NCBI GenBank assembly: GCA_013216195.1
Contig: JABSOQ010000005.1
Span: forward strand, 1 to 58,644
Source of the DNA: Bdellovibrionales bacterium
GTDB taxonomy: Bacteria; Bdellovibrionota; Bdellovibrionia; Bdellovibrionales; UBA1609
Length of the DNA stretch: 58,644 nt
Direction of reading: 5' to 3'
The position numbers and the translations under genes are program-made. Below, piece by piece: positions 21,864 through 54,617 of this stretch (position 1 is the stretch's first letter; each line of letters opens with the position of its first letter). The notes beneath the pieces are model-generated. The model was given only the letters and a program-made list of their open reading frames with translations, searched no databases and was not told the origin of the DNA.

Positions 21864-21865
21864 AA

Positions 21866-32322: not shown

Positions 32323-32365
32323 GAGCCTTTTAGCTAAAACGCGCTCACTAATGGAAGGCGAGCAG

Positions 32366-35585: not shown

Positions 35586-36728
35586 TCAATGATCTAGCTG
35601 AGTTGGTTGCTGGGTCTCTGGCACAATCTGACTAGGCATAGAGTTAACAATTTGTCTTGACCAATCTGAAGGCTGAAGTGAGTTCACATAAGAGATGAAC
35701 CGCGCAACTGGGCGATCCATAGGCTGCAGAGCTGCCGAGTTAAATCTGATATTTTCATACACTTTGCCGTCTTCACCTTGCAAAAAATGAAAGCCCCATT
35801 TTGCACTGTTAAGAAGAAGCCAACTCAATGCTTTGCCCAAAAAACCTTTTCTTCTTTTAGTCACAAAAATTGGAGTCACCTTAGATTTACCGAGTTCGAC
35901 TTGGGAGTAAGCAAAAATAGTATGCACTGCAGGCAAGCGGTACTTACCGAAAGCCTTCACATCTTTCAAAGTTGTAAGCAAACCGACTGTGGCATCAACA
36001 TATTTCATACCATAACTGTAGCTATCTCCTATGCACCTCGCCATCAGCCGACCCACAAAGCTATCTTGAGGTATCTTACCCGTTAAAACGATATGCAAAG
36101 AGGTAGGCTCAGTTTGGTCCATATTCACATTCATATCCATATGAATGTTATGAACTGTCGAGAGATGCTGCGGATCGATGCCGTTGATCATCGTCACGTG
36201 ATAGTGACAACTTCTCTGGTAAGAAAGGCCAGCCTTTGAATCAACCTCAGAGCCTTCAAGCTCAGGTAGTTCAGGCACCGGATATGGAGCTTTAGACTCA
36301 GGCCAAACCCAAATGAAGCCGTACCTCTCTTCAACGGCATAGCCTCTTAGGTAGAGCTGCCTGGGCTCTGGCTGACCACTTGGTATATGTTGGCACTTCC
36401 CCTTGCCGTCGAATTGCCAATGATGAAAAAAACATCGTATGTTCTCACCGCAAACCTTGCCCAACCCCAAATCAACACCCATGTGTGGGCAGAAACCATC
36501 GGTGCAATAAACTTCTCCAGACTGGCCCCTAAAAAGCACAACCCTTTGGCCGCAAAGGTCCATCGAATGCGGAGCCTTTTTTAAAGCGGCACTTGGCATT
36601 GCGAGATACCAGCCCTTTGTTACGACCTCCCAATTATTAAAGACTGGGTGAGAACGAAATGGCTGTGTCTTTTGGTTTTTCTCTCTGTTCAAGCTGATCC
36701 TCTTCTTCACCTTTGCAAAGCTCTTCAA
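35586..36728 (-). CDS. Rieske [2Fe-2S] non-haem iron oxygenase, paralog 1
   Basis: Rieske CPHMGVDLGLGKVCGENIRCFFHHWQF (CxH...CxxH). Mononuclear iron motif NGIDPQHLSTVH (DxxHxxxxH). Confidence 0.8.
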   Translation of the reverse strand: MKSFAKVKKRISLNREKNQKTQPFRSHPVFNNWEVVTKGWYLAMPSAALKKAPHSMDLCGQRVVLFRGQSGEVYCTDGFCPHMGVDLGLGKVCGENIRCFFHHWQFDGKGKCQHIPSGQPEPRQLYLRGYAVEERYGFIWVWPESKAPYPVPELPELEGSEVDSKAGLSYQRSCHYHVTMINGIDPQHLSTVHNIHMDMNVNMDQTEPTSLHIVLTGKIPQDSFVGRLMARCIGDSYSYGMKYVDATVGLLTTLKDVKAFGKYRLPAVHTIFAYSQVELGKSKVTPIFVTKRRKGFLGKALSWLLLNSAKWGFHFLQGEDGKVYENIRFNSAALQPMDRPVARFISYVNSLQPSDWSRQIVNSMPSQIVPETQQPTQLDH

Positions 36729-37479
36729 ACAATTCTTTATCTTTTCCGGTCAATATCGCCTCTAAACTCGAGATGGCCTTAACACAATCAATCGCGAGAA
36801 ACGCGGTGTGGTTGTAGCCAACTCCGAGTCGCAACACTTTTGCTCCGTTTGCTTTTTCAGACAAGCTGATGGCTCCGATAGATATCGCCGTCGGCCCCAT
36901 AGGAGCTACCAACATCCCCTTGTCGATCCACTCTTGCCCAAACAAACAACTAACAGAGATTCCGCCAGCCTTTTTAGCAAACAAGTGAGGCATTCGGTAA
37001 GCTGCAAAACAAACAACCTTTAGCAACATTCTGTTCAGAAAGTGGTTTGAATGATCGGCACAGAACTTCGCAATGGGATACCTCTCGGCTTCGCCCTTAG
37101 CTGCAAGACCCATCTCACGACTTAAGCCTTCAACTGTTTTGTTCTGGGCTTGCTCGATCACGGTCGCTGTCAGGTGAGTTTCACCATTTCTCTTCATCAA
37201 CAAAGGCAGGTTGACTCTAGGCTCAGAGAACTCAATGAGCCGAGGACCCAATAGAGTAGACAGAACGACCCTGTGAGACTGTGGCTGACGCCTATGCAAA
37301 AGTGCAGCGGCCTTAACTAAAATGGCCGTTAAGGGTATCTTGTCCCACCCACCAAAACGTCTTGAAAGGGCTGAAATGTCTACGTCAATTTGCCCGGGGT
37401 TGAAAAACTGAGTTTTCCCAATCTTGAGAAGTTGATACCTAAGAAACCACTCTGACAGAGTTAGCTTGCGAACTACCAC
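36637..37479 (-). CDS. CAT/E2-like acyltransferase-fold protein (2-oxoacid dehydrogenase acyltransferase catalytic-domain family), divergent active site
   Basis: The order of segments matches the E2 catalytic-domain layout: DVDISAL, IPLTAILVKAAALLHRRQP, GGISVSCLFG, LRLGVGYNHTAFLAIDCVKAISSLEAIL. The usual DHRxxDG reads YNHTAFLAID. Confidence 0.45.
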   Translation of the reverse strand: MVVRKLTLSEWFLRYQLLKIGKTQFFNPGQIDVDISALSRRFGGWDKIPLTAILVKAAALLHRRQPQSHRVVLSTLLGPRLIEFSEPRVNLPLLMKRNGETHLTATVIEQAQNKTVEGLSREMGLAAKGEAERYPIAKFCADHSNHFLNRMLLKVVCFAAYRMPHLFAKKAGGISVSCLFGQEWIDKGMLVAPMGPTAISIGAISLSEKANGAKVLRLGVGYNHTAFLAIDCVKAISSLEAILTGKDKELFEELCKGEEEDQLEQREKPKDTAISFSPSL

Positions 37480-38555
37480 GTCCCCTCCTCGAGCCCTTCA
37501 ATTTGCTTTATGAATTCAACACTGGCGCGGTCTTTGTCTACAAAAACCTGGGGATTAAACTTCATGTGAGGATAAGCCTTCACATCATCATCTTTTAAAG
37601 CCAATAGCACAGCATAAGAGAAAACCTTGTAAAGCAGTCTCTTCAATGGTGCAAAGAAGCCGCGAAGATTCGGGTACAACACAAAAAAGTCGGTATCGCT
37701 AACGCCTTTCTCATTTGCAAATGACGACCATGCAATTTGAACACTTGGAATCTTCCAAGCATTGCTTTTGCCAAACAGTCTTGCCCCAACTCCGTATTCA
37801 ATTTTTACCAAATTGCCACCAAAGAACTCGACTTCGTATTGAAACTTTCCGCCAAGTAGCCAATGAGCCATCTTGGTCAAAACGTTTTCCTTAGGTATCT
37901 CACCAGAAATCTGCCAAAGGTAATGCGACTCAGATAACTCGCGGGTTTCGAATTTAAAATCAATATCGAGATTGTGAACCGAAAAGAAGTGATGAAGATC
38001 AACAGCACTCATCATCAAAGCATGGTGATGTACAAACAACTTTGTTCGACCAAGCCGCTGCCCAGCCAAGCCCACAAAGGGAAAAGGCAACACCTTTTTA
38101 GAGTCTGAGTGCACCCATATCATTCCCCACTTTTCGACTACTGAGTAGGTACTCAACTTAGCACAATTCGGCAGACGATCAGTTGAGGGCACATGCTCTA
38201 GGTTGCCCTGATCACCAGAAAACTCCCACTGGTGGAAGTAGCACTGTATGTTCTCGCCTTTAACTTTTCCGTTGCCCAGATCAGCACCAAAATGAGGGCA
38301 AAAAGCATCGATCGCATAAACGCGGCCAGACTCACCACGAAAAAGTGTAACCCTCTGCTTACCCAATGTGACAGATCTCGCTTGTAGACCTGCAAGCGCA
38401 GCCGAAGGTAAAACCGAATACCATGACCTGGTCAAAAATCCTGGCTGGTTGAGCACACGAAAATGTCTAGCTGGTTGAGTTTGCTCATTCAACCATCGAG
38501 AGGCTCCATCTTTAGGCTGGTTTCTCCAGTGCTGGGTGTCCTGCATGCTCCACAT
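37473..38555 (-). CDS. Rieske [2Fe-2S] non-haem iron oxygenase, paralog 2
   Basis: CPHFGADLGNGKVKGENIQCYFHQWEF and SAVDLHHFFSVH. Confidence 0.8.
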   Translation of the reverse strand: MWSMQDTQHWRNQPKDGASRWLNEQTQPARHFRVLNQPGFLTRSWYSVLPSAALAGLQARSVTLGKQRVTLFRGESGRVYAIDAFCPHFGADLGNGKVKGENIQCYFHQWEFSGDQGNLEHVPSTDRLPNCAKLSTYSVVEKWGMIWVHSDSKKVLPFPFVGLAGQRLGRTKLFVHHHALMMSAVDLHHFFSVHNLDIDFKFETRELSESHYLWQISGEIPKENVLTKMAHWLLGGKFQYEVEFFGGNLVKIEYGVGARLFGKSNAWKIPSVQIAWSSFANEKGVSDTDFFVLYPNLRGFFAPLKRLLYKVFSYAVLLALKDDDVKAYPHMKFNPQVFVDKDRASVEFIKQIEGLEEGTW

Positions 38556-38663
38556 CAGAGCAAATCTTCAGGAGTTGGTCGAGCCAAAAAATAGTCATTG
38601 CGGCTCGCAATACGTGCGTTTAGCCTAATTGGGTCTCAATTTACTTCTCTAGAAAGGATTCTT

Positions 38664-40259
38664 ATGAGGTCATTACTTATTATTCTTCTATCATGCGTTG
38701 TTTGCATGCCCGCCTTGGCAAAAAAAGTAAATAAAAGAACACAAATCAAAGTCCCAAAGATTCGTAAAAGAACCTTTAACGACAACTACTTCAAAACTAT
38801 CGACAAAAAGCTCGAGGCGCAGAGAAAGAAGCTACAAAAAGACGGTAAAAAGAGAAAGATCGCGCAAGAGAGAGAGTACAGCCAAAACGATGTGGCTCAA
38901 GATGTTCAAGAACTTGGCCGTCAGTGGCAAAACCAGCTAACTCCTGAGGGCCTACACAGAGTCATGACTGCTGCTATAGCAAGAGCCAACAGCCCTTCTA
39001 ACGAAGTCAGCAATGCCTACAAATTGCTAGCTGGTACTTTTGAAGTCTCTATCCGAATGAGAGGTATGATCTGGAAGCTTCGCCCAATGGTTGAAGACAA
39101 CGGCAACAAGATGACTCATATTGCTGCTATTCAAATCATTCGAGGTATTTCAAACAGCATTGCAGATTTACTGCCAAACCAGCAGTTCACCACTTACAAG
39201 CAATACATTCACAAACCAGCTCCTGAATTTACTGAAGCTGACAGATTCAGATCAGTCTCTGAACTTCAAGCCTACCTTGTAAGCGGCTTGAACGGACAAC
39301 CAGGATTAATTGAGACCTTGAAAGTCGTAACCACCAAACTTGAGGCTCTAACACAGGCTCGGCCCAATGAAATCTATGTCTACGACAACAAGTGGGCTTG
39401 GGGTAAGAACGAGTTCCCTCGTGGCCGAGATGTGGTTGAATTTTCACCTATTGGCTACGGTGAGAAAAACCTTATCATCAGCTCTTTGTACGAGGCACAA
39501 AGAGACATTCTTGTGTTTGCTGCCTACAACCATGACCGCATGATCAATCTAGCCGGTGAACTCAGTACAGGCGTGGGCATCGATGCTTTCGGTCTTGATC
39601 GTGTTCTTACAAGTGACGAATGGGGTATGTCTGATCGCGAGAAGTTTGGCATCATCCGTGATGAAGTTCGAAAAGATCGCAATAGAAGCTACATGTCACT
39701 CAAAGGCGGCAAAGACGGTCTTGGTCAAGATTTGATGGTTCAGGCACACAACGCTATGGTCACCTCTATCTCTCACTTTGTTACTGCCTACAATCACTTC
39801 AACGACCCATCTACTGGTGGCGCAGACAACAGACCAGAAGAAGTTCGTAAATACTCAGATAAGGGTATCGAAAACCTTTTGGAAATCGCTAACTCAACTG
39901 GCTCAATGACTGTCCGAGAGCCTCTTACTGGGAAGACGGCTTCAATAAACGCTTATGCCTTCTATCACGACTCTCCCCTACATCTCGATGATCTCTTCGC
40001 CACTACTTTTTATGGTGACCCAGGCTCAAGAGCAGAAGAGAGAGTCAGAGAGTACACAGTAAAAGGAGCTGAGGGCGATCTTAAGTGGAGAAACTATGAC
40101 CTCGGTAGATCGAAAGGCTGGAGCAAATCGGCCTGGATCAAATACGTGCCTTCGTTTGCTGGTCAAGACGCTGGTTATATGATGGAAGCAAAAAGAATCA
40201 TCTCTTCAAGCCAAGGTACAGCTTTTGCCTTCGGTCTAACTAACGTTTTCGTACACTAA
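38664..40259 (+). CDS. Secreted protein of unknown function
   Basis: ATG at 38664 follows AAAGGA. The signal MRSLLIILLSCVVCMPALA is followed by a Lys/Arg-rich segment. No motif recognised. Confidence 0.6.
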   Translation: MRSLLIILLSCVVCMPALAKKVNKRTQIKVPKIRKRTFNDNYFKTIDKKLEAQRKKLQKDGKKRKIAQEREYSQNDVAQDVQELGRQWQNQLTPEGLHRVMTAAIARANSPSNEVSNAYKLLAGTFEVSIRMRGMIWKLRPMVEDNGNKMTHIAAIQIIRGISNSIADLLPNQQFTTYKQYIHKPAPEFTEADRFRSVSELQAYLVSGLNGQPGLIETLKVVTTKLEALTQARPNEIYVYDNKWAWGKNEFPRGRDVVEFSPIGYGEKNLIISSLYEAQRDILVFAAYNHDRMINLAGELSTGVGIDAFGLDRVLTSDEWGMSDREKFGIIRDEVRKDRNRSYMSLKGGKDGLGQDLMVQAHNAMVTSISHFVTAYNHFNDPSTGGADNRPEEVRKYSDKGIENLLEIANSTGSMTVREPLTGKTASINAYAFYHDSPLHLDDLFATTFYGDPGSRAEERVREYTVKGAEGDLKWRNYDLGRSKGWSKSAWIKYVPSFAGQDAGYMMEAKRIISSSQGTAFAFGLTNVFVH

Positions 40260-40269
40260 AAAAGATTTT

Positions 40270-40296
40270 GGTACCAACCCACCTCGGGTTGGTACC
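40270..40296. terminator. Bidirectional stem-loop between convergent genes
   Basis: 11-bp perfect stem GGTACCAACCC (40270-40280) / GGGTTGGTACC (40286-40296) with a 5-nt loop. It lies 10 nt after the plus-gene stop and 2 nt after the minus-gene stop. Confidence 0.55.
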
Positions 40297-40298
40297 CT

Positions 40299-42389
40299 TC
40301 ATCTCTTAGCATCACCGCTTACTCCAGCTTTCAAGACCAGATAATCTCCGAAAAAGTTCACTGCAAAACCAATTACAAACAGCAGACCCAAGAGCTTCAG
40401 CGGAACCAATGAGTAAAAAAGAAATACACAACTGATCAGCACCAAGCAGATCGCTGTAAGAGCGCTGGCTTCTGCTTTACTTTCGATACCTTGTGCTAGT
40501 TCTAGGTAGGGTGTAACGAAATACTGAATGAAGTTGTCGCCGGTGATTCCTACAAGTGCTGCAAAAAACAGACATGTGACAATGTTTACGGGCACAGAGA
40601 ACAAGGCCAGAACAAGAACCATCACAAGTGGTCCAAAGAAAATCGAGTAGAGTATCAAAGCTATCTGACGAATTGGTCTCTTTCGACAGAGCCACAAAAT
40701 CACAAGGCCCACTAGACTCAAACTCAGCCAAAAAGTTGAAATTAATGACTTGGCAACGAACTGGCTTGACTCAGCATACACGGCTGCCGGCCCTGACAAA
40801 AGACATGAGCTGCATACTCTTTCAACCAGGTTGCGCAGATTCAAGATAACATCGGTCGAGTACTCTTTTAAGAACAGCACCCACTGCTCGTTACCTTTCA
40901 GAGTTTTGAGATGCTTGAGAGCTCCAGTCATTCTGAATTCTCGTTCAACAAAGGCTCTATCAGCAGCTGACAGTGAGTGAAAGTCTTGGCTCCAAACTCG
41001 GTCGTAATTCAAGATATCTGAGACCTCGGCTCGACTATTAAGTTGATTGAACAAATCTACACGTTCAGGCTCTTCTGCTGTTGCAGGAACAAACATTCGC
41101 ACTGTTGTTTTGGCCCTGGTTTTATTTAGCTGGCTGTTAATGCCCCGACTCAGCTCATGCTCCGCAGGAAAGTTCTGCAAGGGCTCATCCATATAGGTCA
41201 AAAACGGAAAGGCAAGGATTCCAAGAACACAAGGTGCAATCAATACCCTTCCAAATACTGGCGGCAATGAGACTCTCAAAATGAACCCAGTTATCCATTT
41301 CATAAATCTGGGCGGCTGCCGAACTGACAACAGGCCAGGTGCCAACACCAAAAGGTTGGGAAGCACCAAGAAGCACAGGCACCATTGAACGATGGCACCA
41401 ATGGCTGCTTGGGTACCAAAATCGCGAATCAAAGAAAAATCTGACACATTCAATGACAAAAAGCCAATGACCGTAGTCATGCTAGTAAGCCCTGATGGCC
41501 TGCTCAAAGACTCAAAGACTTGTATTGCGTGCGAGTTCTCTCTCAACCCCATACAGATAAATACAAAATCACTCAGTGACGAAATAATGAGAATCAAGAA
41601 CATACCGTTTACCAGAAAGCTCATAGGCAAACCTAGTGCTGCCGAAGCACCTAAAACCCAAACAAAAGATAAACCCAATAAGGAGGCAAAAACCAAGGAG
41701 GCCGACAAGCTTCCAAAATAAAGGCCTAGTAGAGTCAATAGCAGCAGCCCACCAACAATTGATGCCCAAGAGTCTTCTAGCACAGACAAAAAAAGGTGAT
41801 ACCGATAAGAGCTTGGCCCCAAAACCATGAACTCCAAGTCGGGCAGCTTTGACCTCAATTCAAGTTCAAGAGGTTTTAGGTGGGCTGACATGAGCAGAGC
41901 AGGGTTTGTGTTCTCAGGTACTGAGAAGTGAACAGTAGACTTGATGGCATTATCAGACTTCCAATCATCTAGCTCAGCTAACAGTGGTCGCACCTTGAGC
42001 CCATGAGGGGTTTTGTCACAAGGGTCTGGGTAAAGACTCAAGAATATCAACCTCTCCTGTTCAAAGAAAAAACCAGGGACCTTCCATGGGTGCATAATGT
42101 ACCTGACATAAGACGAAGAGTTTTGCATCTCCTGCAATGTCTTAGAGATCTCGCATTGCTGCTCGACAGATAGAGCAGATTCAGTTTGCACAATTAAGCT
42201 CACCGTTTCAGCACGACCAAACTGCATTTTGATTTCATCGAGGTCCTTAGCCGACTGAATACCAAGATCTCTATGGCTTGAAATGTCCATGTGAAGTTCG
42301 AGTGCCGGCAAAAAGCTAGATACCACCACCGTAAGTATCAAAAATGACGTGAGGGCGATCCATGGTTGGCTGAGCAGATTCTTGTACAT
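40299..42389 (-). CDS. MMPL/RND-superfamily exporter
   Basis: 696 aa with RND topology: TM1, a soluble loop of about 170 aa, a 5-helix bundle, TM7, a second soluble loop, then a second 5-helix bundle. Confidence 0.65.
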   Translation of the reverse strand: MYKNLLSQPWIALTSFLILTVVVSSFLPALELHMDISSHRDLGIQSAKDLDEIKMQFGRAETVSLIVQTESALSVEQQCEISKTLQEMQNSSSYVRYIMHPWKVPGFFFEQERLIFLSLYPDPCDKTPHGLKVRPLLAELDDWKSDNAIKSTVHFSVPENTNPALLMSAHLKPLELELRSKLPDLEFMVLGPSSYRYHLFLSVLEDSWASIVGGLLLLTLLGLYFGSLSASLVFASLLGLSFVWVLGASAALGLPMSFLVNGMFLILIISSLSDFVFICMGLRENSHAIQVFESLSRPSGLTSMTTVIGFLSLNVSDFSLIRDFGTQAAIGAIVQWCLCFLVLPNLLVLAPGLLSVRQPPRFMKWITGFILRVSLPPVFGRVLIAPCVLGILAFPFLTYMDEPLQNFPAEHELSRGINSQLNKTRAKTTVRMFVPATAEEPERVDLFNQLNSRAEVSDILNYDRVWSQDFHSLSAADRAFVEREFRMTGALKHLKTLKGNEQWVLFLKEYSTDVILNLRNLVERVCSSCLLSGPAAVYAESSQFVAKSLISTFWLSLSLVGLVILWLCRKRPIRQIALILYSIFFGPLVMVLVLALFSVPVNIVTCLFFAALVGITGDNFIQYFVTPYLELAQGIESKAEASALTAICLVLISCVFLFYSLVPLKLLGLLFVIGFAVNFFGDYLVLKAGVSGDAKR

Positions 42390-42616
42390 GCTTTAAAGGC
42401 TAACCACTTTCGATGGGTTAAGGAAGCTCATATTGAATGTAAGAGCTTAGGGACAACCCCGATCACAAAGACGTTCCACTGACCCAAAATACCATTGCGA
42501 CGCAAGAGGTTATCACGAGACAAGCCCCCTCTCTCAAAGGATAATTTTTTAACGAAATCGCCCATGGTGGCAGGCTTCAAGGTAGAAGCCCCAAAAAAGC
42601 AAATTGAGGTTCAAGG

Positions 42617-43669
42617 ATGAATTTTCACGACACTCTCGCAAATTTTGGTAATTCGGAGTTTGTACCAGACGGATGGTACTGGCTTGCCGATAGCCGTGAA
42701 CTCAAAAAGAAAACTGCAAAAGCTGCAGAGATCGCCGGTAAAAAACTTGTTATCTACCGGAGCGAAAGTGGTGCCGTATACGGTCTAGATGCTCACTGCC
42801 CACACATGGGTGCCCATTTGTGCGATGGCAAGGTCGAGGGAGAGGCCATTCGTTGCCCTTTTCATTTTTGGAAGTTCGACAACAACGGAGCTTGCACTGA
42901 CATCCCTGTAGGAGCTGACCACACTGCTATTGAGCGATTGAATTCTTATAAAATTCGAGAACACCTCGGACTCATTTGGGTGTGGACAGGTGACCCAACT
43001 GAAGAGGTCCCCCTACCGCTTCCTGAAGAGCTCGAAGATGGTTTGGTCAGCACTCGCCTCGGCACTCCGTTCGAGAAGGCCTGTCATCCTAACGTAGTCA
43101 TGGTCAACGCCATCGATGCGCATCACTTCACTTCAGTTCATCAATTGGTCGTTGAGCTCAACATGAAACCCGAGGAGCGAGATGCTTACTCTATAACCTT
43201 TGACAACACCACTCCTTGCCCTCCGGATCATTGGCTTTTTAGCCCACTTCGCAGGTTCTACAAAAAAGCACTGACCTACAACCTCAAATACTGGTGGGGG
43301 CACACTGGTGCTGTGACTTTGGGCCCTGACTTTCTACACTTTCATATCATCTTCGCCCTCAGACCTGGGATGAATGGCTCAACTCAAGGTCAAACTATCT
43401 TGTTAACCAAAAACAGAAAAGGCATGCTTGGCAAAGCCATCAATGCTTGTCTCCTTGAAATCACTCGCTGGGTAGGTAACTACTTTGCAAAGGGTGATAC
43501 GGTCATCTTTCAGAATATCGACTTCGCTTTTAAAAACCCAATCAAGGCAGACAAACCCATTGTGCACTTTGTCCGTCACTATGAAAAAATGCGATCAAGT
43601 TTTTTCAAACAGAAATCTATGCCCAGCGAGGAGATCAAATGGAGTCGACAGCCCGAAATTCAGGCCTAG
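42617..43669 (+). CDS. Rieske [2Fe-2S] non-haem iron oxygenase, paralog 3
   Basis: CPHMGAHLCDGKVEGEAIRCPFHFWKF and NAIDAHHFTSVH. Confidence 0.85.
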   Translation: MNFHDTLANFGNSEFVPDGWYWLADSRELKKKTAKAAEIAGKKLVIYRSESGAVYGLDAHCPHMGAHLCDGKVEGEAIRCPFHFWKFDNNGACTDIPVGADHTAIERLNSYKIREHLGLIWVWTGDPTEEVPLPLPEELEDGLVSTRLGTPFEKACHPNVVMVNAIDAHHFTSVHQLVVELNMKPEERDAYSITFDNTTPCPPDHWLFSPLRRFYKKALTYNLKYWWGHTGAVTLGPDFLHFHIIFALRPGMNGSTQGQTILLTKNRKGMLGKAINACLLEITRWVGNYFAKGDTVIFQNIDFAFKNPIKADKPIVHFVRHYEKMRSSFFKQKSMPSEEIKWSRQPEIQA

Positions 43670-44007: not shown

Positions 44008-45167
44008 ATAGACCTGCTCAAAAAGCTCCGTCTTGGAAACGACGGGTCGAATTTGCGCTTAAAAAAAGCAAAGAGCTCGACCAAACCGCGAATATCGATT
44101 TAGCCAGTGAGCAGTTTCGGTATGAAGACTGTGCCAATCAGTACTGGAACCCCGAACAGTACTCATTTATGTGGGGCACTCAACTCTGGCAAGAGGCAAC
44201 AGCTTCAGAAAAAAGAATTCTCAACCAAATCTATTGGGTTGCATACTACTCACAGATCATATCGGCTGAGATCGCTACGATTTATTTTAATCAAGCTAGC
44301 GCAGCTTCACTTTTCTCAGTGCCCGACTTTCGAAGCGTTTGTGACACACTTGACCTCGAAAGCAGTCAAGAACGAGCTCACATCTCAGCATTTACCAAAG
44401 TTGGTCGCCAGACAGAAAAAGTCTTGTTTGGTGGTCCAATCTTTTGCTACCCACTTCGAACTCCTTTTGAAAAGACAATGGTCCACTCAGATCTTGGCTC
44501 AATTCGGCAATGGATTCGAAAGTGGCAACTGAAGGTCTACCCCGTATTGTCGTCGGACTCACCTTACATCGGAGCTCAGTACTTTACGATCAGAGCACTA
44601 AGAACTCTCAACGGTAAAATCGTACAAGACCGGTTGTCTCGTATGTCTCGAGAGACTGAAACCTCGGCAGCTCCCTCTAAGATTTCAGAGTACCACTTCC
44701 TCGATGAGAGCTTTCATTTCAATACCTCGATGCTTTTGTCAAAAGACATAATGCAAAGCATTCCTAAACCGACTCGATTCGAAAAGTTGATCAGCAATAT
44801 TGCGATAAGTGGTTGCCAAAAAGACCACTACCACTATTCGACTGCACTTAATGGAATTTTTTGGTACGACCCAGCCTTATTTAACAAGGTTTACCAGGTT
44901 CTGACTTCAAGAGTCTTAAACCTTTCAAGGGCTGATGCTCTACAAATGATGGAAAAGTGCTTTTGTGAAGATTCAGAAGGCATGCAAAAAGCTAGAGAGA
45001 CACACACAATCGCAATCGAAAGCTACCAGAATTACCTAAGCGACGTCGAACACTTGTGGGCCTCAAACTATAATTTACAGCTCATGAAGAAAAACTCGAT
45101 CGAAAAAACTCTGAAGAGAAACAAGCTTCAATTCAAAAAATTCAAGCAAAGGGTGATACATGCCTGA
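43968..45167 (+). CDS. Di-iron carboxylate oxygenase candidate (AurF-like family)
   Basis: Candidate ligand series IISAEIAT, SQERAH, SEYH and LDESFH (E...ExxH...E...ExxH spacing). 399 aa. Confidence 0.45.
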   Translation: METTVERKSQFKLDRPAQKAPSWKRRVEFALKKSKELDQTANIDLASEQFRYEDCANQYWNPEQYSFMWGTQLWQEATASEKRILNQIYWVAYYSQIISAEIATIYFNQASAASLFSVPDFRSVCDTLDLESSQERAHISAFTKVGRQTEKVLFGGPIFCYPLRTPFEKTMVHSDLGSIRQWIRKWQLKVYPVLSSDSPYIGAQYFTIRALRTLNGKIVQDRLSRMSRETETSAAPSKISEYHFLDESFHFNTSMLLSKDIMQSIPKPTRFEKLISNIAISGCQKDHYHYSTALNGIFWYDPALFNKVYQVLTSRVLNLSRADALQMMEKCFCEDSEGMQKARETHTIAIESYQNYLSDVEHLWASNYNLQLMKKNSIEKTLKRNKLQFKKFKQRVIHA

Positions 45168-45468
45168 TTCTATAGCGATTAAGTTCGTTAACCAGTCCTC
45201 ATCAGGGTTTGACTCGCTAGATATTGAAAAGGGATCAGCATTGGTCGATAAACTCGATGCCACCAACTCGCCTATATTATTTGGTTGCCGTACTGGCATA
45301 TGTGGCACTTGTGCCATTCGAGTGCACAATCCTGAAAACTGTCGTCCGCAAACTCAAGTAGAGAGAGACTTTTTTGAATCCGTTGGTCTCGAGCAAGAAA
45401 CCGACCTGAGGCTAAGTTGTCAGCTTTCCGCTGAACACGACTTAAGCGTAGAGAAAGTGAGAGTTTGA
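45160..45468 (+). CDS. Plant-type [2Fe-2S] ferredoxin
   Basis: GCRTGICGTCAIRV ... LSCQL gives the CxxxxCxxC...C pattern. 102 aa. Overlaps both neighbours, by 8 nt and 4 nt. Confidence 0.8.
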   Translation: MPDSIAIKFVNQSSSGFDSLDIEKGSALVDKLDATNSPILFGCRTGICGTCAIRVHNPENCRPQTQVERDFFESVGLEQETDLRLSCQLSAEHDLSVEKVRV

Positions 45469-46487
45469 TGAGCCTCGACAAAAACCTCGATCTATTTTGG
45501 TGGGTGGCCGCTGAAAGTCATGAGCTCCAAAATAAACCTTTAGCAAGAAAAATCTTAGACAAAGACATTGTCTTGTTTCGAGGTGAGGACGGTCACCCGG
45601 TAGCCCTCAAAGATCAATGCATTCATCGGGGGGCGGCACTATCCTCCGGCACTATCCAAAAAGGTCAACTCACCTGCCCTTACCATGGCTGGAGATACAA
45701 TCAGTCAGGAGATGTGACCTGGATCCCTTCTGAAGGACGGGCACCAAAAGGCCGACGATGCCAACGGGAGTATCAAGCTATAGAGCAAGATGGATTTGTC
45801 TACGTTCGGTTTTCACAGAAAAAGACAAACGCTCAACCCTTTCCAATGCCCCACTACAAAGACAAAGGTTACAGCTCCATTCGGCTACAAAACTTGTTCG
45901 AAGCCGAATTGTTGAATTGCGTAGAAAACTTTATCGACATACCCCACACGACATTTGTGCATCCCAATATCTTTCGAAACGAGTCTGGCTGTGAGACTAA
46001 AACAAAAATAACAAAGAGAACAGGCCATGTTCACATTGAATACTTCAATGAGAATTCTGATTTCGGATGGTTCTCCTGGTTTCTAAACCCTAAGAAAATT
46101 CCAGTGGTGCACACTGACGAGTACTTTGGCCCAAATATCACAACTGTTAACTACTACGTCGAAAAAGGCCACTTCATAATCACTTCACAAAGTGTACCTA
46201 TCGACGAGGACCATACACTCGTTTACACCGACCTTACCTACAACTACGGTATTTGGAATTACTTTTGTCGTCCAATTGTTAGATCTCAAAGCCAAAAGGT
46301 GATTGACCAAGATGTTATCATTCTAAAAAACCAACATCAGACTCTCAAAAGAAACCCTATGCGCTTTCAGAACTCAGATTGTGATCTGATACACCTCGCT
46401 GTTGATCAAACCTACCACGAGCTTGTTGACCCAAAAAATGCACCAACAAATGAAGAGAAAGTGACGGAATGCAGTTTTTGGATCTAG
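45465..46487 (+). CDS. Rieske [2Fe-2S] non-haem iron oxygenase, canonical-type (paralog 4)
   Basis: CIHRGAALSSGTIQKGQLTCPYHGWRY and NFIDIPHTTFVH. Confidence 0.85.
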   Translation: MMSLDKNLDLFWWVAAESHELQNKPLARKILDKDIVLFRGEDGHPVALKDQCIHRGAALSSGTIQKGQLTCPYHGWRYNQSGDVTWIPSEGRAPKGRRCQREYQAIEQDGFVYVRFSQKKTNAQPFPMPHYKDKGYSSIRLQNLFEAELLNCVENFIDIPHTTFVHPNIFRNESGCETKTKITKRTGHVHIEYFNENSDFGWFSWFLNPKKIPVVHTDEYFGPNITTVNYYVEKGHFIITSQSVPIDEDHTLVYTDLTYNYGIWNYFCRPIVRSQSQKVIDQDVIILKNQHQTLKRNPMRFQNSDCDLIHLAVDQTYHELVDPKNAPTNEEKVTECSFWI

Positions 46488-47266
46488 CAAGCGCTCCAGA
46501 TGTCGCCATCACCTTTTTAGGGTTCTGGTCTCTGATGATTCTGAGCGCGTCTAAGATCAAGATGGCCTCGAGCCTTCGAAATCGATGGGATTGGATCATC
46601 GACAGCTTTGGCCTTCTGGCTCAAGGCCTGCTCGTGCCACTGTTTGCCTCTATGGCGCTACAACCTGTTATCAAAATGCTAGCACCCAACACGATTGGTG
46701 CCCTGAATTGGGGTTCTTGGGCTTGTTTTTTTCTACCCCTAACCCTAGTTGATTACCTCTACTACTGGAACCATCGCATTCTTCACAGGCCAAAGCTTTG
46801 GCCAATTCACAGGCTGCACCACTCAGCAAGAAGTATGGACATTCTGATCACTTCGCGCAACTCACTCTTCACACCCTTGTTCATTGTGTACATTTGGGTA
46901 CACCCTGTTTTCTTGGTTGCCCTCGAAAACTGGCATGCCTATCTACTGGGAGTAGCTGCCTCATCTGTTCTTGATCTTTGGCGCCACTCAGCTCTTTCAA
47001 CACCTGATTTTCTTAAAAATCTCAATTGGCTGATTGTATTACCTGAAGACCACAGCTTTCATCACAGTAGTGAAAGCGAGGGCTTCAACTATGGTGCAAA
47101 TCTGAGCCTATGGGACCGCATCCACAGCACCTACAAGCCTCGGCAATTTCATCCAAAAGAAATCGGAGAACAGTTGCAAAGCGAAGAGCTAAAACACCTG
47201 TTCTTCTCTCCTTGGAAACCACGACCACCTATGCCTTCAACACCTAGAGCTACGGAGCCATCATGA
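46469..47266 (+). CDS. Fatty acid hydroxylase / sterol desaturase superfamily membrane di-iron enzyme
   Basis: Histidine boxes WNHRILH, HRLHH and HSFHH within a polytopic protein. Confidence 0.75.
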   Translation: MQFLDLASAPDVAITFLGFWSLMILSASKIKMASSLRNRWDWIIDSFGLLAQGLLVPLFASMALQPVIKMLAPNTIGALNWGSWACFFLPLTLVDYLYYWNHRILHRPKLWPIHRLHHSARSMDILITSRNSLFTPLFIVYIWVHPVFLVALENWHAYLLGVAASSVLDLWRHSALSTPDFLKNLNWLIVLPEDHSFHHSSESEGFNYGANLSLWDRIHSTYKPRQFHPKEIGEQLQSEELKHLFFSPWKPRPPMPSTPRATEPS

Positions 47267-47874
47267 CATTAGCTGGTAGGCTTATCTCTTTGTTTCCAGC
47301 GTTGTACCTTGTAATTGAGTTAGCTCTTTTAGCCTTTGGAATTCACTATGAAAGGCCCGTACTACTTGTAGCAGGGCTCTTACACCTTTACCTCACTCCC
47401 CTAGCCCTATTTAAGATCCATGAGATTTTGTTTCCACTAAGTGATGGAGACTATGATCTCTCAGCCAAAAGCTACAACCCTTGGTGGACCTCCTACATGT
47501 TGCAATATCCCTTTATTGCCCTACCAGGGCTCGAGGCCTTACTAAGATTTGTGCCTGGCCTTTTCACTCTTTGGATTCGAGCCTGGGGTGGGAAGATCGG
47601 CAAAAATGTACTGTGGACGCCTCGGGTAGAGATTGTTGACCGTTCGATGATCGAAATAGGAGATCATGTGGTGATCGGTCATATGTCTATATTTTGTAGC
47701 CACGCGATCACTTCAATCAACGGCAAGCCCATCCTTAGACTAAAAACAATTCGAGTGGGAGAGAGAAGCCTGATCGGGGGAGACAGCCAACTGGGGCCAG
47801 GGTCATTAGTAGAGGCCGGAACAATGTTGCCCGCTAAGACTCGATTGTACTGGAACGGAGTGCTGCCGACATGA
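47263..47874 (+). CDS. Membrane-anchored left-handed beta-helix (hexapeptide) acyltransferase-like protein
   Basis: Hydrophobic N-terminal half. The C-terminal half has hexapeptide-like IEIGDHVVIGHMSIF ... VGERSLIGGDSQLGPGSLVEAG. Confidence 0.5.
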   Translation: MTLAGRLISLFPALYLVIELALLAFGIHYERPVLLVAGLLHLYLTPLALFKIHEILFPLSDGDYDLSAKSYNPWWTSYMLQYPFIALPGLEALLRFVPGLFTLWIRAWGGKIGKNVLWTPRVEIVDRSMIEIGDHVVIGHMSIFCSHAITSINGKPILRLKTIRVGERSLIGGDSQLGPGSLVEAGTMLPAKTRLYWNGVLPT

Positions 47875-49304
47875 GCTTGCTGTTTCAAGCTGCAAAGTGG
47901 TCTATGCGAGCCGCCTCTAGAAGCCGATACAACAGGTTTTTAGAAAGCCTGAACGAGCCCAAGCAAGCCCAACAAGAAACTCTTAAAAGTATTCTAGCTC
48001 TCACGAAACAGCAAAAACTACCTAGCTCTCTGACCGTTTATTCAGACTACCCTTCGGGCACCTCATGGAACCTTGAAACAGTTCAACACTTCGAGCCAAC
48101 ATCTGGCTCAAGTGGCAAGGGTAAAAAGTGGATCCCCTACACTCAGTCTTTGCTGAATTCGTTTCAGTCGATGTTCAAAATTTGGAGCTACGATGTCTTA
48201 AGTTCTGGCATAGAGCTAAAATCAGGCAAGACCTTTATTTCGATCTCACCTCCTCAAAAGAATCAATCGAATGACGACACTGAGTATCTGGGCTCTACAC
48301 TCCGCTACATCACGGGTAGGTTCTTAGTTGCACAAGACTTAGTAGGTACGGACTCACACGACTTCTTCAACCAAGTTGCAAGACAGCTCGCCCAAGCTGA
48401 AGACCTTGAGATCATTTCAGTCTGGAGCCCATCTTACCTGAGCTCTCTCATGAAAACTATCGCATCTGAATGCGATGCCTACTCAATGACAAGAGTTCGA
48501 AGACAACTTGCTCGGTCTCGGAACTGGTCAGCACTCTGGCCATCTCTGAAGTTCGTCTCAGCTTGGGGGTCAGCAAATTCAAAAACACCATTTGAACAAA
48601 TAGCAGCTCTATTCCCACAAGTTCATTTTCAAAAAAAAGGGCTGTTAAGCACAGAAGCACCCGTTACGGTTCCTCTCTTTCAATCAGACACTGGAGCTCT
48701 CCCTCTCTGGTTAGATGTCTACCTAGAAGTTCTAGATCAACACGGAGACATCAGGCCCCTATACAGCATAAAGGAAGGCGAAAAGGCTGAGGTCCTTATC
48801 ACGAGCTTTGGTGGACTCAAAAGATACCAACTGGGTGATCAGGTCGTTTGCACAACAAGACTTGGCAATTCGCCAGTGGTTGAGTTTATTGGGAGAAAAG
48901 CTGAAATCTCCGACCTGGTTGGAGAAAAGATTGAAAGCACTTGGCTCACCGAAGAACTCTCACATCTTCATGGAGACTGGCTGGTGCTGCCAATTCAAAG
49001 CCGTAACCAGAACCCCTCTTACTATCAGCTACTTCACTCTGAAAAATCGGGCACAGACTTTGAGTCTGCATTGAAAGGTAGCTATCACTATCAACTTGCT
49101 AGGGATCAAAATCAACTCTCATCTGCAAAGCAGTTGAGAGTTCCTAATCTGATAGAACTTAAGCAAAGCTTTTTTGAAAGACATGGAATCAGCAGGGGTG
49201 ATATCAAAGACTCGCGTCTGCTGACGGACCCTGTTTTGGCAAATGAATTTGTTCAGTACCTAGACTTACCAAATTTGCCATTTCAGACTCAGCTAAAACC
49301 TTAA
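47871..49304 (+). CDS. GH3-family adenylate-forming (acyl acid amido synthetase-like) enzyme
   Basis: FEPTSGSSGKGKKWIPYT resembles the GH3 P-loop-like (S/T)SGTT..K.IP. The N-terminal RFLESLNEPKQAQQETLKSIL fits the family N-terminus. 477 aa. Confidence 0.55.
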   Translation: MSLLFQAAKWSMRAASRSRYNRFLESLNEPKQAQQETLKSILALTKQQKLPSSLTVYSDYPSGTSWNLETVQHFEPTSGSSGKGKKWIPYTQSLLNSFQSMFKIWSYDVLSSGIELKSGKTFISISPPQKNQSNDDTEYLGSTLRYITGRFLVAQDLVGTDSHDFFNQVARQLAQAEDLEIISVWSPSYLSSLMKTIASECDAYSMTRVRRQLARSRNWSALWPSLKFVSAWGSANSKTPFEQIAALFPQVHFQKKGLLSTEAPVTVPLFQSDTGALPLWLDVYLEVLDQHGDIRPLYSIKEGEKAEVLITSFGGLKRYQLGDQVVCTTRLGNSPVVEFIGRKAEISDLVGEKIESTWLTEELSHLHGDWLVLPIQSRNQNPSYYQLLHSEKSGTDFESALKGSYHYQLARDQNQLSSAKQLRVPNLIELKQSFFERHGISRGDIKDSRLLTDPVLANEFVQYLDLPNLPFQTQLKP

Positions 49305-50160
49305 ACATACCTTCTCGCTGCCAAGCCTCAACAACACTAGGTTGAACCACTTTAGACACCAATCTCTTGAACACATTCATTTTGAATTCGGCTCTTTCCA
49401 CGGCTTCAACCTCTCTTAAAAACTTTTGAAGCTCAGCACGCCCCAACTGAGAGTCTGCCGAAAATACGGTTTGGGCCAACTGCAGCGGGCCAATCGCTAT
49501 AGACTGAGCCATTGTCGTCAGTGTTTGGTACACGAAGCTCGATTCAAAGAGATCGCGATCAGTTAGCTTGTCTTTTTCAATCATGGCCAAGCCACCAGAA
49601 TGGTGCTTGGCCTCGTCTTTAAGAATCTCAACAAATACTTTCTTGAGTGCTTCGTGATTGCAGTTTTTTTGAAGCTCCTGATAGTAATGAAGGCCCCAAC
49701 CCTCAAGTGTGGTCTGCACAAGAATTAAACCTTCAAAGAAGTTTGCCTTCTTTACGATCCCTGAGACGAACTGAGAGAACTCAGACTCAAGCTGTCCGTC
49801 AATTTCAGATACAAATGGGCAGATCATCTCAAAGTGCCTAGATTCTTGAGAGGCGAACTCGCAAAACACCTGGCGCTGATCAATGTTTTGACTCAGCAAC
49901 CCCATCTTATTGGCGTAGGCCATTCCGGCCATTTCGATATGCAAGGTCTCTTTTAGCAAGCCCTCTGACAACTCTGCATGAATGCGGCCTCTGACATCTT
50001 GAGAAAGTCCGTTCCACACTTCAGAGTTTGCGATACCAAAAAACTCCTCAGAAAACAGAGTTTCACCATCGGGCGATTTCCTTTCCGGGTAGCCCTTAAG
50101 CTTTTGTAGTGTCTCGTGAGATAGGCTATCTTTTTCTGGCAATACCACATTGTATTTCAT
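49204..50160 (-). CDS. Ferritin-like di-iron carboxylate protein
   Basis: Ordered ligand set HIEMAG, SQESRH, TLEGWG and KDEAKH (E, ExxH, E, ExxH). Confidence 0.6.
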   Translation of the reverse strand: MKYNVVLPEKDSLSHETLQKLKGYPERKSPDGETLFSEEFFGIANSEVWNGLSQDVRGRIHAELSEGLLKETLHIEMAGMAYANKMGLLSQNIDQRQVFCEFASQESRHFEMICPFVSEIDGQLESEFSQFVSGIVKKANFFEGLILVQTTLEGWGLHYYQELQKNCNHEALKKVFVEILKDEAKHHSGGLAMIEKDKLTDRDLFESSFVYQTLTTMAQSIAIGPLQLAQTVFSADSQLGRAELQKFLREVEAVERAEFKMNVFKRLVSKVVQPSVVEAWQREGMFKVLAESEMANLVSLGTEQIHLPKQGPSADASL

Positions 50161-51008
50161 ACTGACGAGCCCTCAACTGCAGACATCATATTACTTGCAG
50201 TTTTCTGCATGAGAGAGTCGTAAACTGCTTCTGGCAAAAAGCGCTTTAAAAACCAACCCAAACGAGCATCTTTACCTACAGTAACTGACTTTCTCCTATT
50301 GCCCTCGATGAGCTGAACAATCTTGTGCACGACCTCCATCTTGTCTGGTGGGTTCGGCCTGCTACTGAGCTTCTTTTGAAACTGCTTTAGGCCGCGTACT
50401 TGCTGGAGATATACGTCTTCTTTCAACCCCTCTTCAAAAATCGCATTTTCCAAAAAATTAGTACGGTAGCCTCCCGGTCGCACCGAAAAAACATCGACAC
50501 CATGAGGCTTTAACTCAAGAGCAAGCGATTGAGTGAAGCCTTCAACAGCAAACTTCGAAGCGCAATAAACTGATGTCAATGGAAAGCCCATAAAACCAAA
50601 TGCACTCGACACATTCACGATCTTGCCTTTCGATGTTCTCAAGGCTGGCAACAGCTCCCTTGTCAGCTTCATCAAACCCACTAGATTGGTGTTGATAAGT
50701 CTCTCCATCGCCTCATCTGTCACTTCTTCTAAAGGGCCAAAGTGCCCAAGCCCAGCATTGTTAACTAAGCAATCGAGTGTCTTGTGTTCGAAGAATTCTT
50801 TAACTTGGGCGATTTGAGAGGGCTCATTCACATCGAGATCTATTAACTGGAGCCGCGCCCTCAGATCTTCAGAGATCGAAGCAAAGATCTTGCTTCGAGA
50901 ACAAATACTCCTGCCTGTTGCTACCACCTCGTAGTCTTTTTGCAAAAGCTCCTCAACTAAAGAGAGGCCAAACCCAGAGGTCGCACCAGTAATTAAAACT
51001 GTCTTCAT
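50157..51008 (-). CDS. Short-chain dehydrogenase/reductase
   Basis: VLITGATSGFGLS, NNAG and YCASKFAVEG. The MKTV start ATG at 51008 overlaps the upstream stop as ATGA. The track ORF extends to 51095. Confidence 0.85.
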   Translation of the reverse strand: MKTVLITGATSGFGLSLVEELLQKDYEVVATGRSICSRSKIFASISEDLRARLQLIDLDVNEPSQIAQVKEFFEHKTLDCLVNNAGLGHFGPLEEVTDEAMERLINTNLVGLMKLTRELLPALRTSKGKIVNVSSAFGFMGFPLTSVYCASKFAVEGFTQSLALELKPHGVDVFSVRPGGYRTNFLENAIFEEGLKEDVYLQQVRGLKQFQKKLSSRPNPPDKMEVVHKIVQLIEGNRRKSVTVGKDARLGWFLKRFLPEAVYDSLMQKTASNMMSAVEGSSV

Positions 51009-51829
51009 TTTTCTACTTTCTTTTTCAGCAGACTTTTCAAAAGCTTTTTCATTGAATATTTCAGAGGCATAAACAGAGTCATTTTCGCGATACAACAGAG
51101 CTCCTGCCCGTCTTGCCAGTTCGGGTTGCTCTGTTGAAAGAAGGCGATACGAGGGTTCTTTAAAAACTTCTCTTTTACGCAGGCGACGTCCGGCTTCAGT
51201 TGGCAGCTCAGACCCTTGGGCACAATTCTCATCGACTCATGATCAAAAGTCTCTTTGAACCTTTGGCTGTAAAACTCATGCATCAACTGCTGATGAAAAA
51301 GGTCTGTAGGCTTCTCATAACGAGGAAAATGAGTATCGAAATTATTTGCCATCAAAAGGTAGGTTTTGTAGCCCTTTGAAATCAAAAACCAGTAAAGTGG
51401 CTGAAATGGCCTCTTGATCTTGAGCTTCCAGAGGTGCTGCAGAAAGGCGATACCCAGCTGCGGTGAGCCCCAATATTGCTCACTCAGAACAGTGTCACCA
51501 CTGTAAACCCCGGTGTAACTCACGCCATCGTTTTCACTCTCAATCTCGAGAATAGTTGAAAAGCCCTGAAGAGTTTTGTGCTTTTTCTCCATCAAGAGAA
51601 TCACTTTGGTCTTTTCAAATAGATCTTTTATAAATTGATCTCGCGGATGATTGTCGTAGTATTCAGCAAACAGCTGAAACATTCTCTCAACCTGTAGAGA
51701 TGTTAAGTCTTCCACATCAACGACTTGCGAGAACAAACTTTCACGTCTGAGCTTTTTTCGAGGCTTTGATTGTACCCGAGGCTCTGCTCGAACATCCCTT
51801 GCTGCTTTTTGGTTTGGGACCACTTCCAT
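51005..51829 (-). CDS. Hypothetical protein (possible GNAT-like acyltransferase)
   Basis: 274 aa with a strong RBS (GAGGGGG). No firm motif. It is the first gene downstream of fusA on the same strand. Confidence 0.45.
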   Translation of the reverse strand: MEVVPNQKAARDVRAEPRVQSKPRKKLRRESLFSQVVDVEDLTSLQVERMFQLFAEYYDNHPRDQFIKDLFEKTKVILLMEKKHKTLQGFSTILEIESENDGVSYTGVYSGDTVLSEQYWGSPQLGIAFLQHLWKLKIKRPFQPLYWFLISKGYKTYLLMANNFDTHFPRYEKPTDLFHQQLMHEFYSQRFKETFDHESMRIVPKGLSCQLKPDVACVKEKFLKNPRIAFFQQSNPNWQDGQELCCIAKMTLFMPLKYSMKKLLKSLLKKKVEK

Positions 51830-54016: not shown

Positions 54017-54130
54017 GGCTTTTGACACGTTGGGGCCTCTTTCAATTGTGACTGCAAAACACGCCGACAATATACAAAAAAAGCACTCTCAAGTGGAGTG
54101 CTTTCTTTGATTCTAGATTGTCTAGTCTGA

Positions 54131-54604: not shown

Positions 54605-54617
54605 GACTTAATACCTC

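Follow-up and report, generated by a model that had tools for sequence, protein, structure and literature searches.

What would a bacterium do with four Rieske oxygenases, two di-iron proteins, a ferredoxin and a set of acyltransferases packed into about 16 kb, with no scaffold synthase among them? The question is raised by positions 35586-51829 of a 58,644-nucleotide stretch of DNA from a Bdellovibrionales bacterium (contig JABSOQ010000005.1, assembly GCA_013216195.1), the whole of which we call the window. An earlier interpretation made from the letters and the open reading frames (ORFs) alone, hereafter the sequence-only reading, had counted 16 coding sequences here and had not recognised their combination as any described pathway. 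The count holds, since 16 ORFs, labelled A to P from left to right, tile the region. The combination, however, corresponds to the "Rieske-containing" class of gene clusters built around homologs of CylC (PMC8406957). We conclude that the region is the Bdellovibrionota version of a catalogued, product-less 'Rieske-containing CylC-homolog' cluster and not a categorically new system. As for what this product-less class does, we lean towards the view that a lipid or lipoamino acid, free of any carrier, is oxidised by ferredoxin-driven enzymes and probably chlorinated as well, then conjugated through amide or ester bonds and exported.

The signature gene of the cluster is H (43968-45167, plus strand), which encodes a 399-aa CylC-like protein of the dimetal-carboxylate (di-iron) halogenase family. 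The sequence-only reading had rightly listed H as one of two di-iron candidates but had missed that it is specifically CylC-like. The family assignment is the precomputed Pfam annotation PF28091.1 of the window protein and of its homologs; hmmscan of H returned a weak AurF match only, the PF28091 model not being part of the scanned Pfam set. The founding member of PF28091, a family of dimetal-carboxylate halogenases, is CylC from the cylindrocyclophane pathway. Both family motifs, as given in a 2026 preprint and in a 2025 study of NocO (PMC12101540), are found in H: ESSQERAH (residues 131-138) fits ExxQExxH and HFLDESFH (243-250) fits HxxDExxH. A PDB sequence search with the H family gave no match.

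We compared H with three homologs from other contexts, all on cyanobacterial plasmids. In Gloeothece PCC 7822 (locus L086) the homolog stands between a gene for FAAL (fatty acyl-AMP ligase) followed by an acyl carrier protein (ACP) gene on one side and a polyketide synthase (PKS) gene on the other; in Stanieria NIES-3757 it is followed by a sulfotransferase and a P450; and in Nostoc UHCC 0926 the match region is unannotated, with a 1583-aa ORF directly downstream. H is 26-29% identical to these three proteins, and the alignment shows E101, E131, Q134, E135, H138, E231, H243, D246, H250 and E272 to be invariant. Among them, E101, E135, H138, E231, H243, H250 and E272 are candidate metal ligands, as judged from the alignment, with Q134 and D246 invariant too.

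Relatives of H are numerous: a word-indexed protein search found 1111, and 363 species genomes encode one. With homologs in Rieske-type loci H shares 47-58% identity. Both these identities and a neighbour-joining tree (a distance tree without bootstrap) place it with homologs of the Rieske/PriA clade and not with the PKS/resorcinol clade. In the tree the window protein forms a long branch on the Bdellovibrionota side, the other side being made up of cyanobacteria and a few Myxococcota/Polyangiales loci. A recent horizontal acquisition of the cluster was considered and is not supported: the H tree splits broadly by phylum, and the G+C content of the cluster (0.445-0.464) is that of its flanks, so that a recent transfer is not indicated.

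We fetched 83 related loci and assigned their ORFs to the window genes by BLASTP. The families of the cluster recur there, largely in the same order; a check of their co-occurrence is what the sequence-only reading had proposed. Eleven genes form a near-collinear core common to cyanobacteria and Bdellovibrionota, which also reaches Myxococcota loci: H (83 of 83 loci), I (81), F (80), N (79), P and J (75 each), A and K (67 each), L (65), M (57) and G (at least 44, the gene being short). The remaining five are accessory (O in 21 loci, D in 12, E in 7, C and B in 5 each). The occurrence of the same genes, mostly in the same order, in 83 loci of at least two phyla is more than chance would produce. 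The cyanobacterial order is (G) A P F N H I J K L M, and the Bdellovibrionota order is (C B) D E F G H I J K L M / N O P A. The window has the latter, except that A follows B rather than P; in all the other Bdellovibrionota loci (L005, L013, L016, L018, L019) A follows P, so that the window is a rearranged permutation.

The Bdellovibrionota additions to the core are O, a short-chain dehydrogenase/reductase (SDR) that some other non-cyanobacterial loci have too, the Rieske protein C with the acyltransferase-like B, the transporter E and the secreted orphan D. Save for two O assignments in cyanobacterial-labelled metagenome-assembled genomes (MAGs), these five occur in non-cyanobacterial loci only. 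B always adjoins C in the five loci that have it, and all 12 loci with D are of the Bdellovibrionota type. The accessory genes recur together in six Bdellovibrionota loci (L005, L013, L016, L018, L019 and L084), and the full gene set is present in the cultured strain Bacteriovorax sp. PP10 (GCA_035013165.1). The cluster is widespread in Bdellovibrionota: of the best 80 genome loci, 21 belong to them, as do most of the top metagenomic matches. The host of the window fits this distribution: its ribosomal proteins fall into 90%-identity clusters with proteins of Bdellovibrionales and Pseudobdellovibrionaceae.

Beyond the window's own genes, the only other recurrent neighbour is an Amidohydro_3 protein, present in 34 Nostocales loci and absent from the window. 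In these 34 loci the cluster starts with Amidohydro_3 and the Mpo1-like protein as two adjacent, unfused genes, while a MAG labelled Heliobacteriaceae (L031, 697-2832) encodes a 711-aa fusion of Amidohydro_3 with an Mpo1-like membrane domain. Fusion and neighbourhood together suggest that the cyanobacterial version includes a membrane-bound step in which an amide is hydrolysed. A Polyangiales MAG (L028, 1557-5157) carries a partial and rearranged cluster, consisting of F, P, N, H and an SDR, with J on the opposite strand. Next to it are encoded a GMC oxidoreductase of 790 aa and another, longer SDR, which may represent lineage-specific extra oxidation steps.

How closely does this arrangement follow what has been described? 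Eusebio et al. (2021, BMC Genomics 22:633) classified 95 cyanobacterial CylC-homolog clusters, and the "Rieske-containing" class was the largest, with 36 of the 95, making it the commonest context of CylC homologs in cyanobacteria (PMC8406957). Its members have two to four Rieske proteins, usually a protein of the sterol-desaturase family and one CylC homolog, no carrier protein and no known product, and the matching cluster of the sequence similarity network includes a few deltaproteobacterial homologs (PMC8406957). The window shares with this class the single CylC homolog, the number of Rieske proteins (four, against two to four), the FA-hydroxylase-family protein K, the ferredoxin, the acyltransferases and the lack of carrier, FAAL and PKS genes, and its core order matches Nostoc, Calothrix and Planktothrix loci. 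It differs in its host, Bdellovibrionales-like rather than cyanobacterial, and in its gene content: it adds the SDR, a fourth Rieske protein with the acyltransferase-like B, a pump and the orphan, and has no counterpart of the Nostocales Amidohydro_3. The cluster thus maps onto a class that is catalogued and product-less, not onto a characterised one.

The oxidative equipment was largely read correctly from the sequence. The four Rieske proteins had been credited with both a cluster-binding and a catalytic-iron motif, and all four indeed have CxH-x17-CxxH and DxxHxxxxH and match Pfam Rieske at E-values of 3e-19 to 3e-24. A (35586-36728, minus strand; 380 aa) is a core gene (E = 4e-21; CPH...CFFH and DPQHLSTVH). 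Its maximal ORF overlaps B by 92 nt, and its start codon is probably further downstream. C (37473-38555, minus; 360 aa) is the fourth Rieske oxygenase, accessory in Bdellovibrionota (E = 3e-19, motifs present). F (42617-43669, plus; 350 aa; E = 3e-22) is a core gene and the first of the F-to-M operon. J (45465-46487, plus; 340 aa), also core, combines the Rieske domain (E = 3e-24) with a VanA_C catalytic domain (E = 2e-11). A, C and F are paralogs with 29-33% identity, A aligning over its full length with C and F (31-33%), and J is of a separate type. Among solved structures the nearest relatives of F are KshA, its top PDB match, SxtDIOX and SxtT, and those of J are SxtDIOX, DdmC, SxtT and NdmA.

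Electrons could be delivered by I (45160-45468, plus; 102 aa), a core gene whose product is a plant-type 2Fe-2S ferredoxin, as had been proposed (Pfam Fer2, 33.5 bits; Cx4Cx2C...C). Its ORF shares 8 nt with the end of H, and in the related loci it lies directly 3' of H or with only A between. A ferredoxin is thus present, but neither the cluster nor the genes that recur beside the related loci include a ferredoxin reductase, so that this partner must come from elsewhere. This agrees with the sequence-only reading, which had also seen no PKS, nonribosomal peptide synthetase (NRPS), terpene cyclase or ACP: Pfam and NCBIfam profile searches returned no match to any of these families, or to ferredoxin reductases, among the 16 proteins, and no carrier protein, FAAL or PKS is encoded by the cluster or the flanking genes.

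The second di-iron candidate, N (49204-50160, minus; 318 aa), is a core ferritin-like di-iron carboxylate protein that matches Pfam Rubrerythrin at 25.8 bits, above the cutoff of 22.8. Across 25 orthologs residues E76, E106, H109, E153, E183 and H186 do not vary, and remote profile matches are to aldehyde-deformylating oxygenase, MiaE and symerythrin. The protein is unusually fast-evolving in the window, with only 21-29% identity to its orthologs compared with 45-58% for H, P and the rest, and for this reason a word-indexed homolog search with N found no relative besides N itself. A single-sequence AlphaFold model reached a pLDDT of only 35, and the family call for N relies on motif conservation and weak profile matches. 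The set of oxidative enzymes is completed by K (46469-47266, plus; 265 aa), a core integral-membrane enzyme of the FA_hydroxylase/sterol-desaturase family (PF04116, 87 bits), in which the expected His boxes are present as HRILH, HRLHH and HSFHH, together with three hydrophobic segments. A PDB sequence search with K gave no match, and its only NCBIfam match is to the ornithine-lipid hydroxylase OlsE, at 57.6 bits against a cutoff of 475, which it does not reach.

Next to the oxygenases stand enzymes that would build conjugates. M (47871-49304, plus; 477 aa) is a core GH3-family adenylating amide synthetase, an assignment already made from the sequence and now carried by two domains above their gathering scores, GH3 (PF03321, 45.7 bits) and GH3_M (PF23571, 37 bits). 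It contains TSGSSGKGKK and YQLGD, which we take to be ANL/GH3 adenylation motifs. Its PDB matches, JAR1 and GH3.5/6/12, cover only the middle region (residues 291-359); M has no GH3_C match and is shorter than the plant enzymes (477 against 575-620 aa). L (47263-47874, plus; 203 aa) is a core hexapeptide-repeat (left-handed beta-helix) acyl- or acetyltransferase anchored by two N-terminal transmembrane segments. The Pfam Hexapep match (E = 5e-5) stays below the gathering score, and NCBIfam adds matches to WcaF and to the terminal domain of Pls/PosA (E = 5e-8), in agreement with the earlier call. O (50157-51095, minus; 312 aa) is, as had been read, a classical SDR oxidoreductase (Pfam adh_short, E = 4e-51; TGxxxGxG and YxxxK).

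The core protein P (51005-51829, minus; 274 aa), the first gene after fusA, had been left without an assignment, and searches of Pfam, NCBIfam and PDB sequences again gave no match. Its AlphaFold2 model (pLDDT 88.4) assigns it a GNAT fold with a C-terminal extension. Foldseek matched the model to AAC(2'), NatD and N-myristoyltransferase at E-values of about 1e-6, and 200 PDB structures matched at E <= 1e-3, those at the top of the list all being GNATs. TM-scores are modest (0.35-0.43) because the GNAT core makes up half of the protein, and the UniRef name of the PP10 ortholog is GNAT as well. By this structural prediction P is a GNAT-fold acyltransferase.

Three further assignments of the sequence-only reading, for G, B and E, find weak or no matches in the window proteins themselves and are upheld by orthologs that pass Pfam gathering scores. 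The small core membrane protein G (43639-44007, plus; 122 aa), which overlaps F and H, is Mpo1/DUF962-like at E = 0.0033, below the gathering score, and its Nostoc ortholog is Mpo1-like at 36 bits, above it. The accessory protein B (36637-37479, minus; 280 aa) has no Pfam match in the window. It is a candidate acyltransferase resembling chloramphenicol acetyltransferase (CAT) and the E2 component of 2-oxoacid dehydrogenases, on the basis of its Bacteriovorax sp. PP10 ortholog (PF00198, 2-oxoacid_dh; 27.5 bits, gathering score 23). The accessory protein E (40299-42389, minus; 696 aa) would be a membrane transporter of the RND/MMPL type, similar to HpnN/HAE3. It matches two NCBIfam HpnN models at E = 1e-7, reaching 25-30 bits where the cutoffs are 752 and 1100. 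Pfam gives no match for the window protein; its L005 ortholog passes the gathering score of Pfam MMPL with 35 bits, and a PDB sequence search with E returned HpnN only, at E = 0.88. A simple hydropathy scan of E gave nine peaks with large loops at about 24-209 and 401-548, which is compatible with the RND/MMPL layout of twelve helices and two large periplasmic loops; by hydropathy K, L, G and E are all predicted membrane proteins. Convergent with E is D (38598-40259, plus; 553 aa), an accessory secreted or lipoprotein-like protein with one N-terminal hydrophobic segment, whose likely start is the second Met, at 38664. An exhaustive search collected 180 representative homologs, and a 37-sequence profile found nothing credible in Pfam or the PDB, so that D is still the orphan secreted protein it had been taken for.

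Taken together, almost every family listed by the sequence-only reading was borne out by family searches and motifs, and its idea that a pre-existing lipid is oxidised, conjugated and exported is still the most plausible reading. It agrees with the absence of a scaffold synthase and with the proposal of Eusebio et al. that Rieske-type clusters act on central fatty-acid intermediates or their derivatives (PMC8406957). What it left out is chlorination. The halogenase-family identity of H adds this reaction to the plausible chemistry, possibly in a cryptic form, as in characterised CylC-type pathways where chlorination can serve later bond formation (PMC8406957).

We propose the following sequence of events. 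Ferredoxin I, reduced by a housekeeping reductase, would pass electrons to the three or four Rieske proteins and to the soluble di-iron enzymes H and N; the His-box membrane enzyme K would need reducing equivalents too. Together these enzymes would hydroxylate or desaturate a hydrophobic substrate at several positions, with no carrier protein holding it. This substrate would come from primary metabolism, most likely as a fatty acyl chain or a lipoamino acid, and H would probably chlorinate an unactivated carbon of it. M would adenylate a carboxylate and form an amide; the GNAT protein P, the hexapeptide protein L and the CAT-like B would add N- or O-acyl groups; and O would interconvert alcohol and ketone. 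In Bdellovibrionota, the pump E and its partner D would move the product to the envelope or outside the cell.

Weak hints from the sequences point to a membrane-bound, amide-linked lipid as the substrate: the OlsE match of K, the pairing of GNAT and GH3 enzymes, the link between Amidohydro_3 and Mpo1-like proteins, and the membrane proteins K, L, G and E. One analogy is to ornithine lipids, which are made by the N-acyltransferase OlsB and the O-acyltransferase OlsA and modified by the hydroxylases OlsC, OlsD and OlsE. In such aminolipid pathways, too, an amide lipid is formed from primary metabolites by N-acylation, and a second acylation is followed by hydroxylases, including members of the FA_hydroxylase family. 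The likeness is one of logic, however, since no relationship of P, L or B to OlsB or OlsA was detected, and we know of no aminolipid pathway with Rieske, CylC-like or GH3 enzymes.

Several observations weigh against this model. The matches that lead to a lipid or lipoamino acid are weak and indirect, the nearest solved relatives of the Rieske proteins act on steroids, alkaloids and aromatics rather than on acyl chains, and the assignment of E as an exporter lies below the family thresholds for the window protein itself. A literature search found no product, substrate or activity for the Rieske-type class, the later papers dealing with CylC in general only. Unlike every characterised CylC-type system, the window and the 83 related loci lack ACP and FAAL. 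With CylC, NocO and BrtJ (cylindrocyclophane-type, bartoloside and FAAL-ACP-PKS pathways) H shares PF28091, both motifs and the candidate ligands. The characterised enzymes, however, chlorinate ACP-bound acyl chains, whereas H has no ACP, FAAL or PKS neighbours and has its own ferredoxin next to it. The di-iron cofactor and the essential residues have likewise been established for an ACP-dependent enzyme only, in the NocO study (PMC12101540). Moreover, an insert of about 60 residues that the canonical-context homologs possess is missing from the Rieske-associated H group, which has a CQxDH / NGIFWYDP region particular to its clade. Rieske-type and PriA-type homologs form a clade that is sister to all others, including the characterised halogenases, and the authors of the 2021 survey allow that some CylC homologs may carry out oxidations other than halogenation (PMC8406957).

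It is quite possible, though in our judgement not likely, that the cluster follows the same logic with H acting as a di-iron hydroxylase or desaturase, giving a product that is oxygenated and acylated and never halogenated. The position of H outside all homologs tied to halogenated products, its low identity to the canonical-context proteins and its distinctive sequence features would fit such a role, as would the six other oxygenases that surround it. On the other hand, H keeps both motifs, including the Gln of QExxH that is regarded as typical of the halogenases and replaces the Asp of the N-oxygenase AurF, and its candidate ligand residues are all invariant across both clades.

Tailoring of a polycyclic triterpenoid, hopanoid- or sterol-like, is an unlikely alternative to the oxidation and chlorination of an acyl lipid. 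Here the Rieske proteins and the SDR would oxidise or demethylate it as SdmA and SdmB do in sterol demethylation, K would desaturate or hydroxylate, and an HpnN-like pump of the hopanoid-transport type would export the product. The combination of a Rieske mono-oxygenase, an NAD(P) oxidoreductase and an RND lipid pump would be common to both systems. SdmA is the best NCBIfam match of all four Rieske proteins (E = 1e-16 to 6e-22), KshA is the top structural relative of F, K belongs to the sterol desaturase family, and both the profile and the PDB matches of E are to HpnN. The scores, however, lie about ten-fold or more below the cutoffs (60-78 bits against 600 for SdmA; the gap for HpnN is wider still). 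No cyclase, squalene or hopanoid gene, and hence no context of triterpenoid synthesis, exists in the window or among the recurrent neighbours, and the exporter is missing from the cyanobacterial core. GH3, GNAT and hexapeptide transferases and a homolog of fatty-acyl-type halogenases would not be expected in such a pathway.

We find it very unlikely that the cluster is catabolic or detoxifying, that is, that Rieske mono-oxygenases or demethylases, the di-iron enzymes, the SDR and, in cyanobacteria, the amidohydrolase break down an environmental or prey-derived compound which the transporter imports or exports. KshA, DdmC, NdmA and the phthalate and carbazole oxygenases, all among the nearest solved relatives of the Rieske proteins, are catabolic, J has a VanA_C domain, and Amidohydro_3 is a conserved neighbour in Nostocales; yet SxtT and SxtDIOX, which are equally close, are biosynthetic. 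The cluster occurs in hundreds of photoautotrophic cyanobacteria, its core genes include one for an ATP-dependent ligase and two for acyltransferases, enzymes of synthesis rather than breakdown, and no ring-cleavage, beta-oxidation or thiolase genes recur nearby.

F and J have some of their closest solved relatives among the saxitoxin enzymes SxtT, SxtH and GxtA (SxtDIOX), cyanobacterial alpha-only Rieske mono-oxygenases that also provide a biosynthetic parallel. The sxt cluster likewise pairs its Rieske enzymes with a small ferredoxin, SxtW, and with SxtD, which resembles sterol desaturases. The kinship is remote (E about 1e-20, mostly over the Rieske domain), the substrate class differs, and the window has no scaffold genes of the SxtA/SxtG type. 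Saxitoxin-like, chlorophyll-catabolic (PAO/CAO) and quinone readings were dropped because scaffold genes are lacking and the cluster occurs in non-phototrophs.

Finally, a chance juxtaposition of unrelated redox genes, which the five separate transcription units on both strands and the different placement of A might suggest, is extremely improbable, being contradicted by the conserved order of the 11 core genes in Cyanobacteria, Bdellovibrionota and Myxococcota, by the joint recurrence of the accessory genes in Bdellovibrionota loci and by gene ends that overlap throughout.

These overlaps amount to 4-40 nt from F to M and are also present within C-B-A and P-O-N, which suggests five transcription units with translational coupling within the three multi-gene ones. 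Between the convergent genes D and E lies a candidate bidirectional terminator (40270-40296, assigned to no strand), a 12-bp G+C-rich hairpin that is the best-scoring terminator-like site of the region and is a pattern match only. M and N are convergent as well, and their 3' ends overlap by 101 nt in the window (49204-49304), by 86 nt in L002 (15092-15177) and by 37 nt in L084 (12494-12530), both of them Bdellovibrionota loci.

With regard to its surroundings, the cluster lies in a gap of about 29 kb between the str operon genes rpsL, rpsG and fusA (51929-54992) and the S10-spc-alpha operon (about 10195-22930). P-O-N lies directly downstream of fusA on the same strand. The gene tuf usually follows fusA; no EF-Tu-sized gene is present between the two ribosomal operons. 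The gap also holds, directly to the left of the cluster, a surface-glycan-type island (23382-35445) with two S-adenosylmethionine methyltransferases, a GT2 glycosyltransferase, a sulfotransferase, a Gfo/Idh/MocA oxidoreductase, a DegT aminotransferase, an ATP-grasp ligase, an NAD epimerase/dehydratase, a HAD hydrolase and two multi-pass membrane proteins without family match. None of the island genes recurs beside the cluster in other loci. Elsewhere in the window, three large ORFs (418-2877, 819 aa; 6595-9159, 854 aa; 56258-58378, 706 aa) have no Pfam match at E <= 1e-3, and tRNA and Rfam scans of the whole window found nothing.

The cluster is worth experimental follow-up because it is widespread, may encode a carrier-independent C-H halogenase and is present in a cultured heterotrophic host. 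Bdellovibrionota hosts, including strain PP10, offer heterotrophs for such studies beside the slow-growing cyanobacteria. Seven oxidative enzymes acting on one scaffold would imply an unusual and heavily functionalised metabolite, and a di-iron enzyme able to halogenate or oxidise C-H bonds independently of an acyl carrier protein would be of value for biocatalysis. We put forward one bolder proposal, which is tentative and on present evidence somewhat doubtful: the H clade may be a carrier-independent di-iron halogenase that works directly on a free or membrane-embedded lipid and, with three or four Rieske oxygenases, a second di-iron enzyme and the His-box hydroxylase, gives rise to a poly-oxygenated amide lipid, chlorinated or cryptically chlorinated with later cyclisation or substitution, of a class not seen before. 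If this is true, such a lipid would be made by hundreds of cyanobacteria and, together with an RND export module, by predatory Bdellovibrionota, in which it may be an envelope or signalling molecule.

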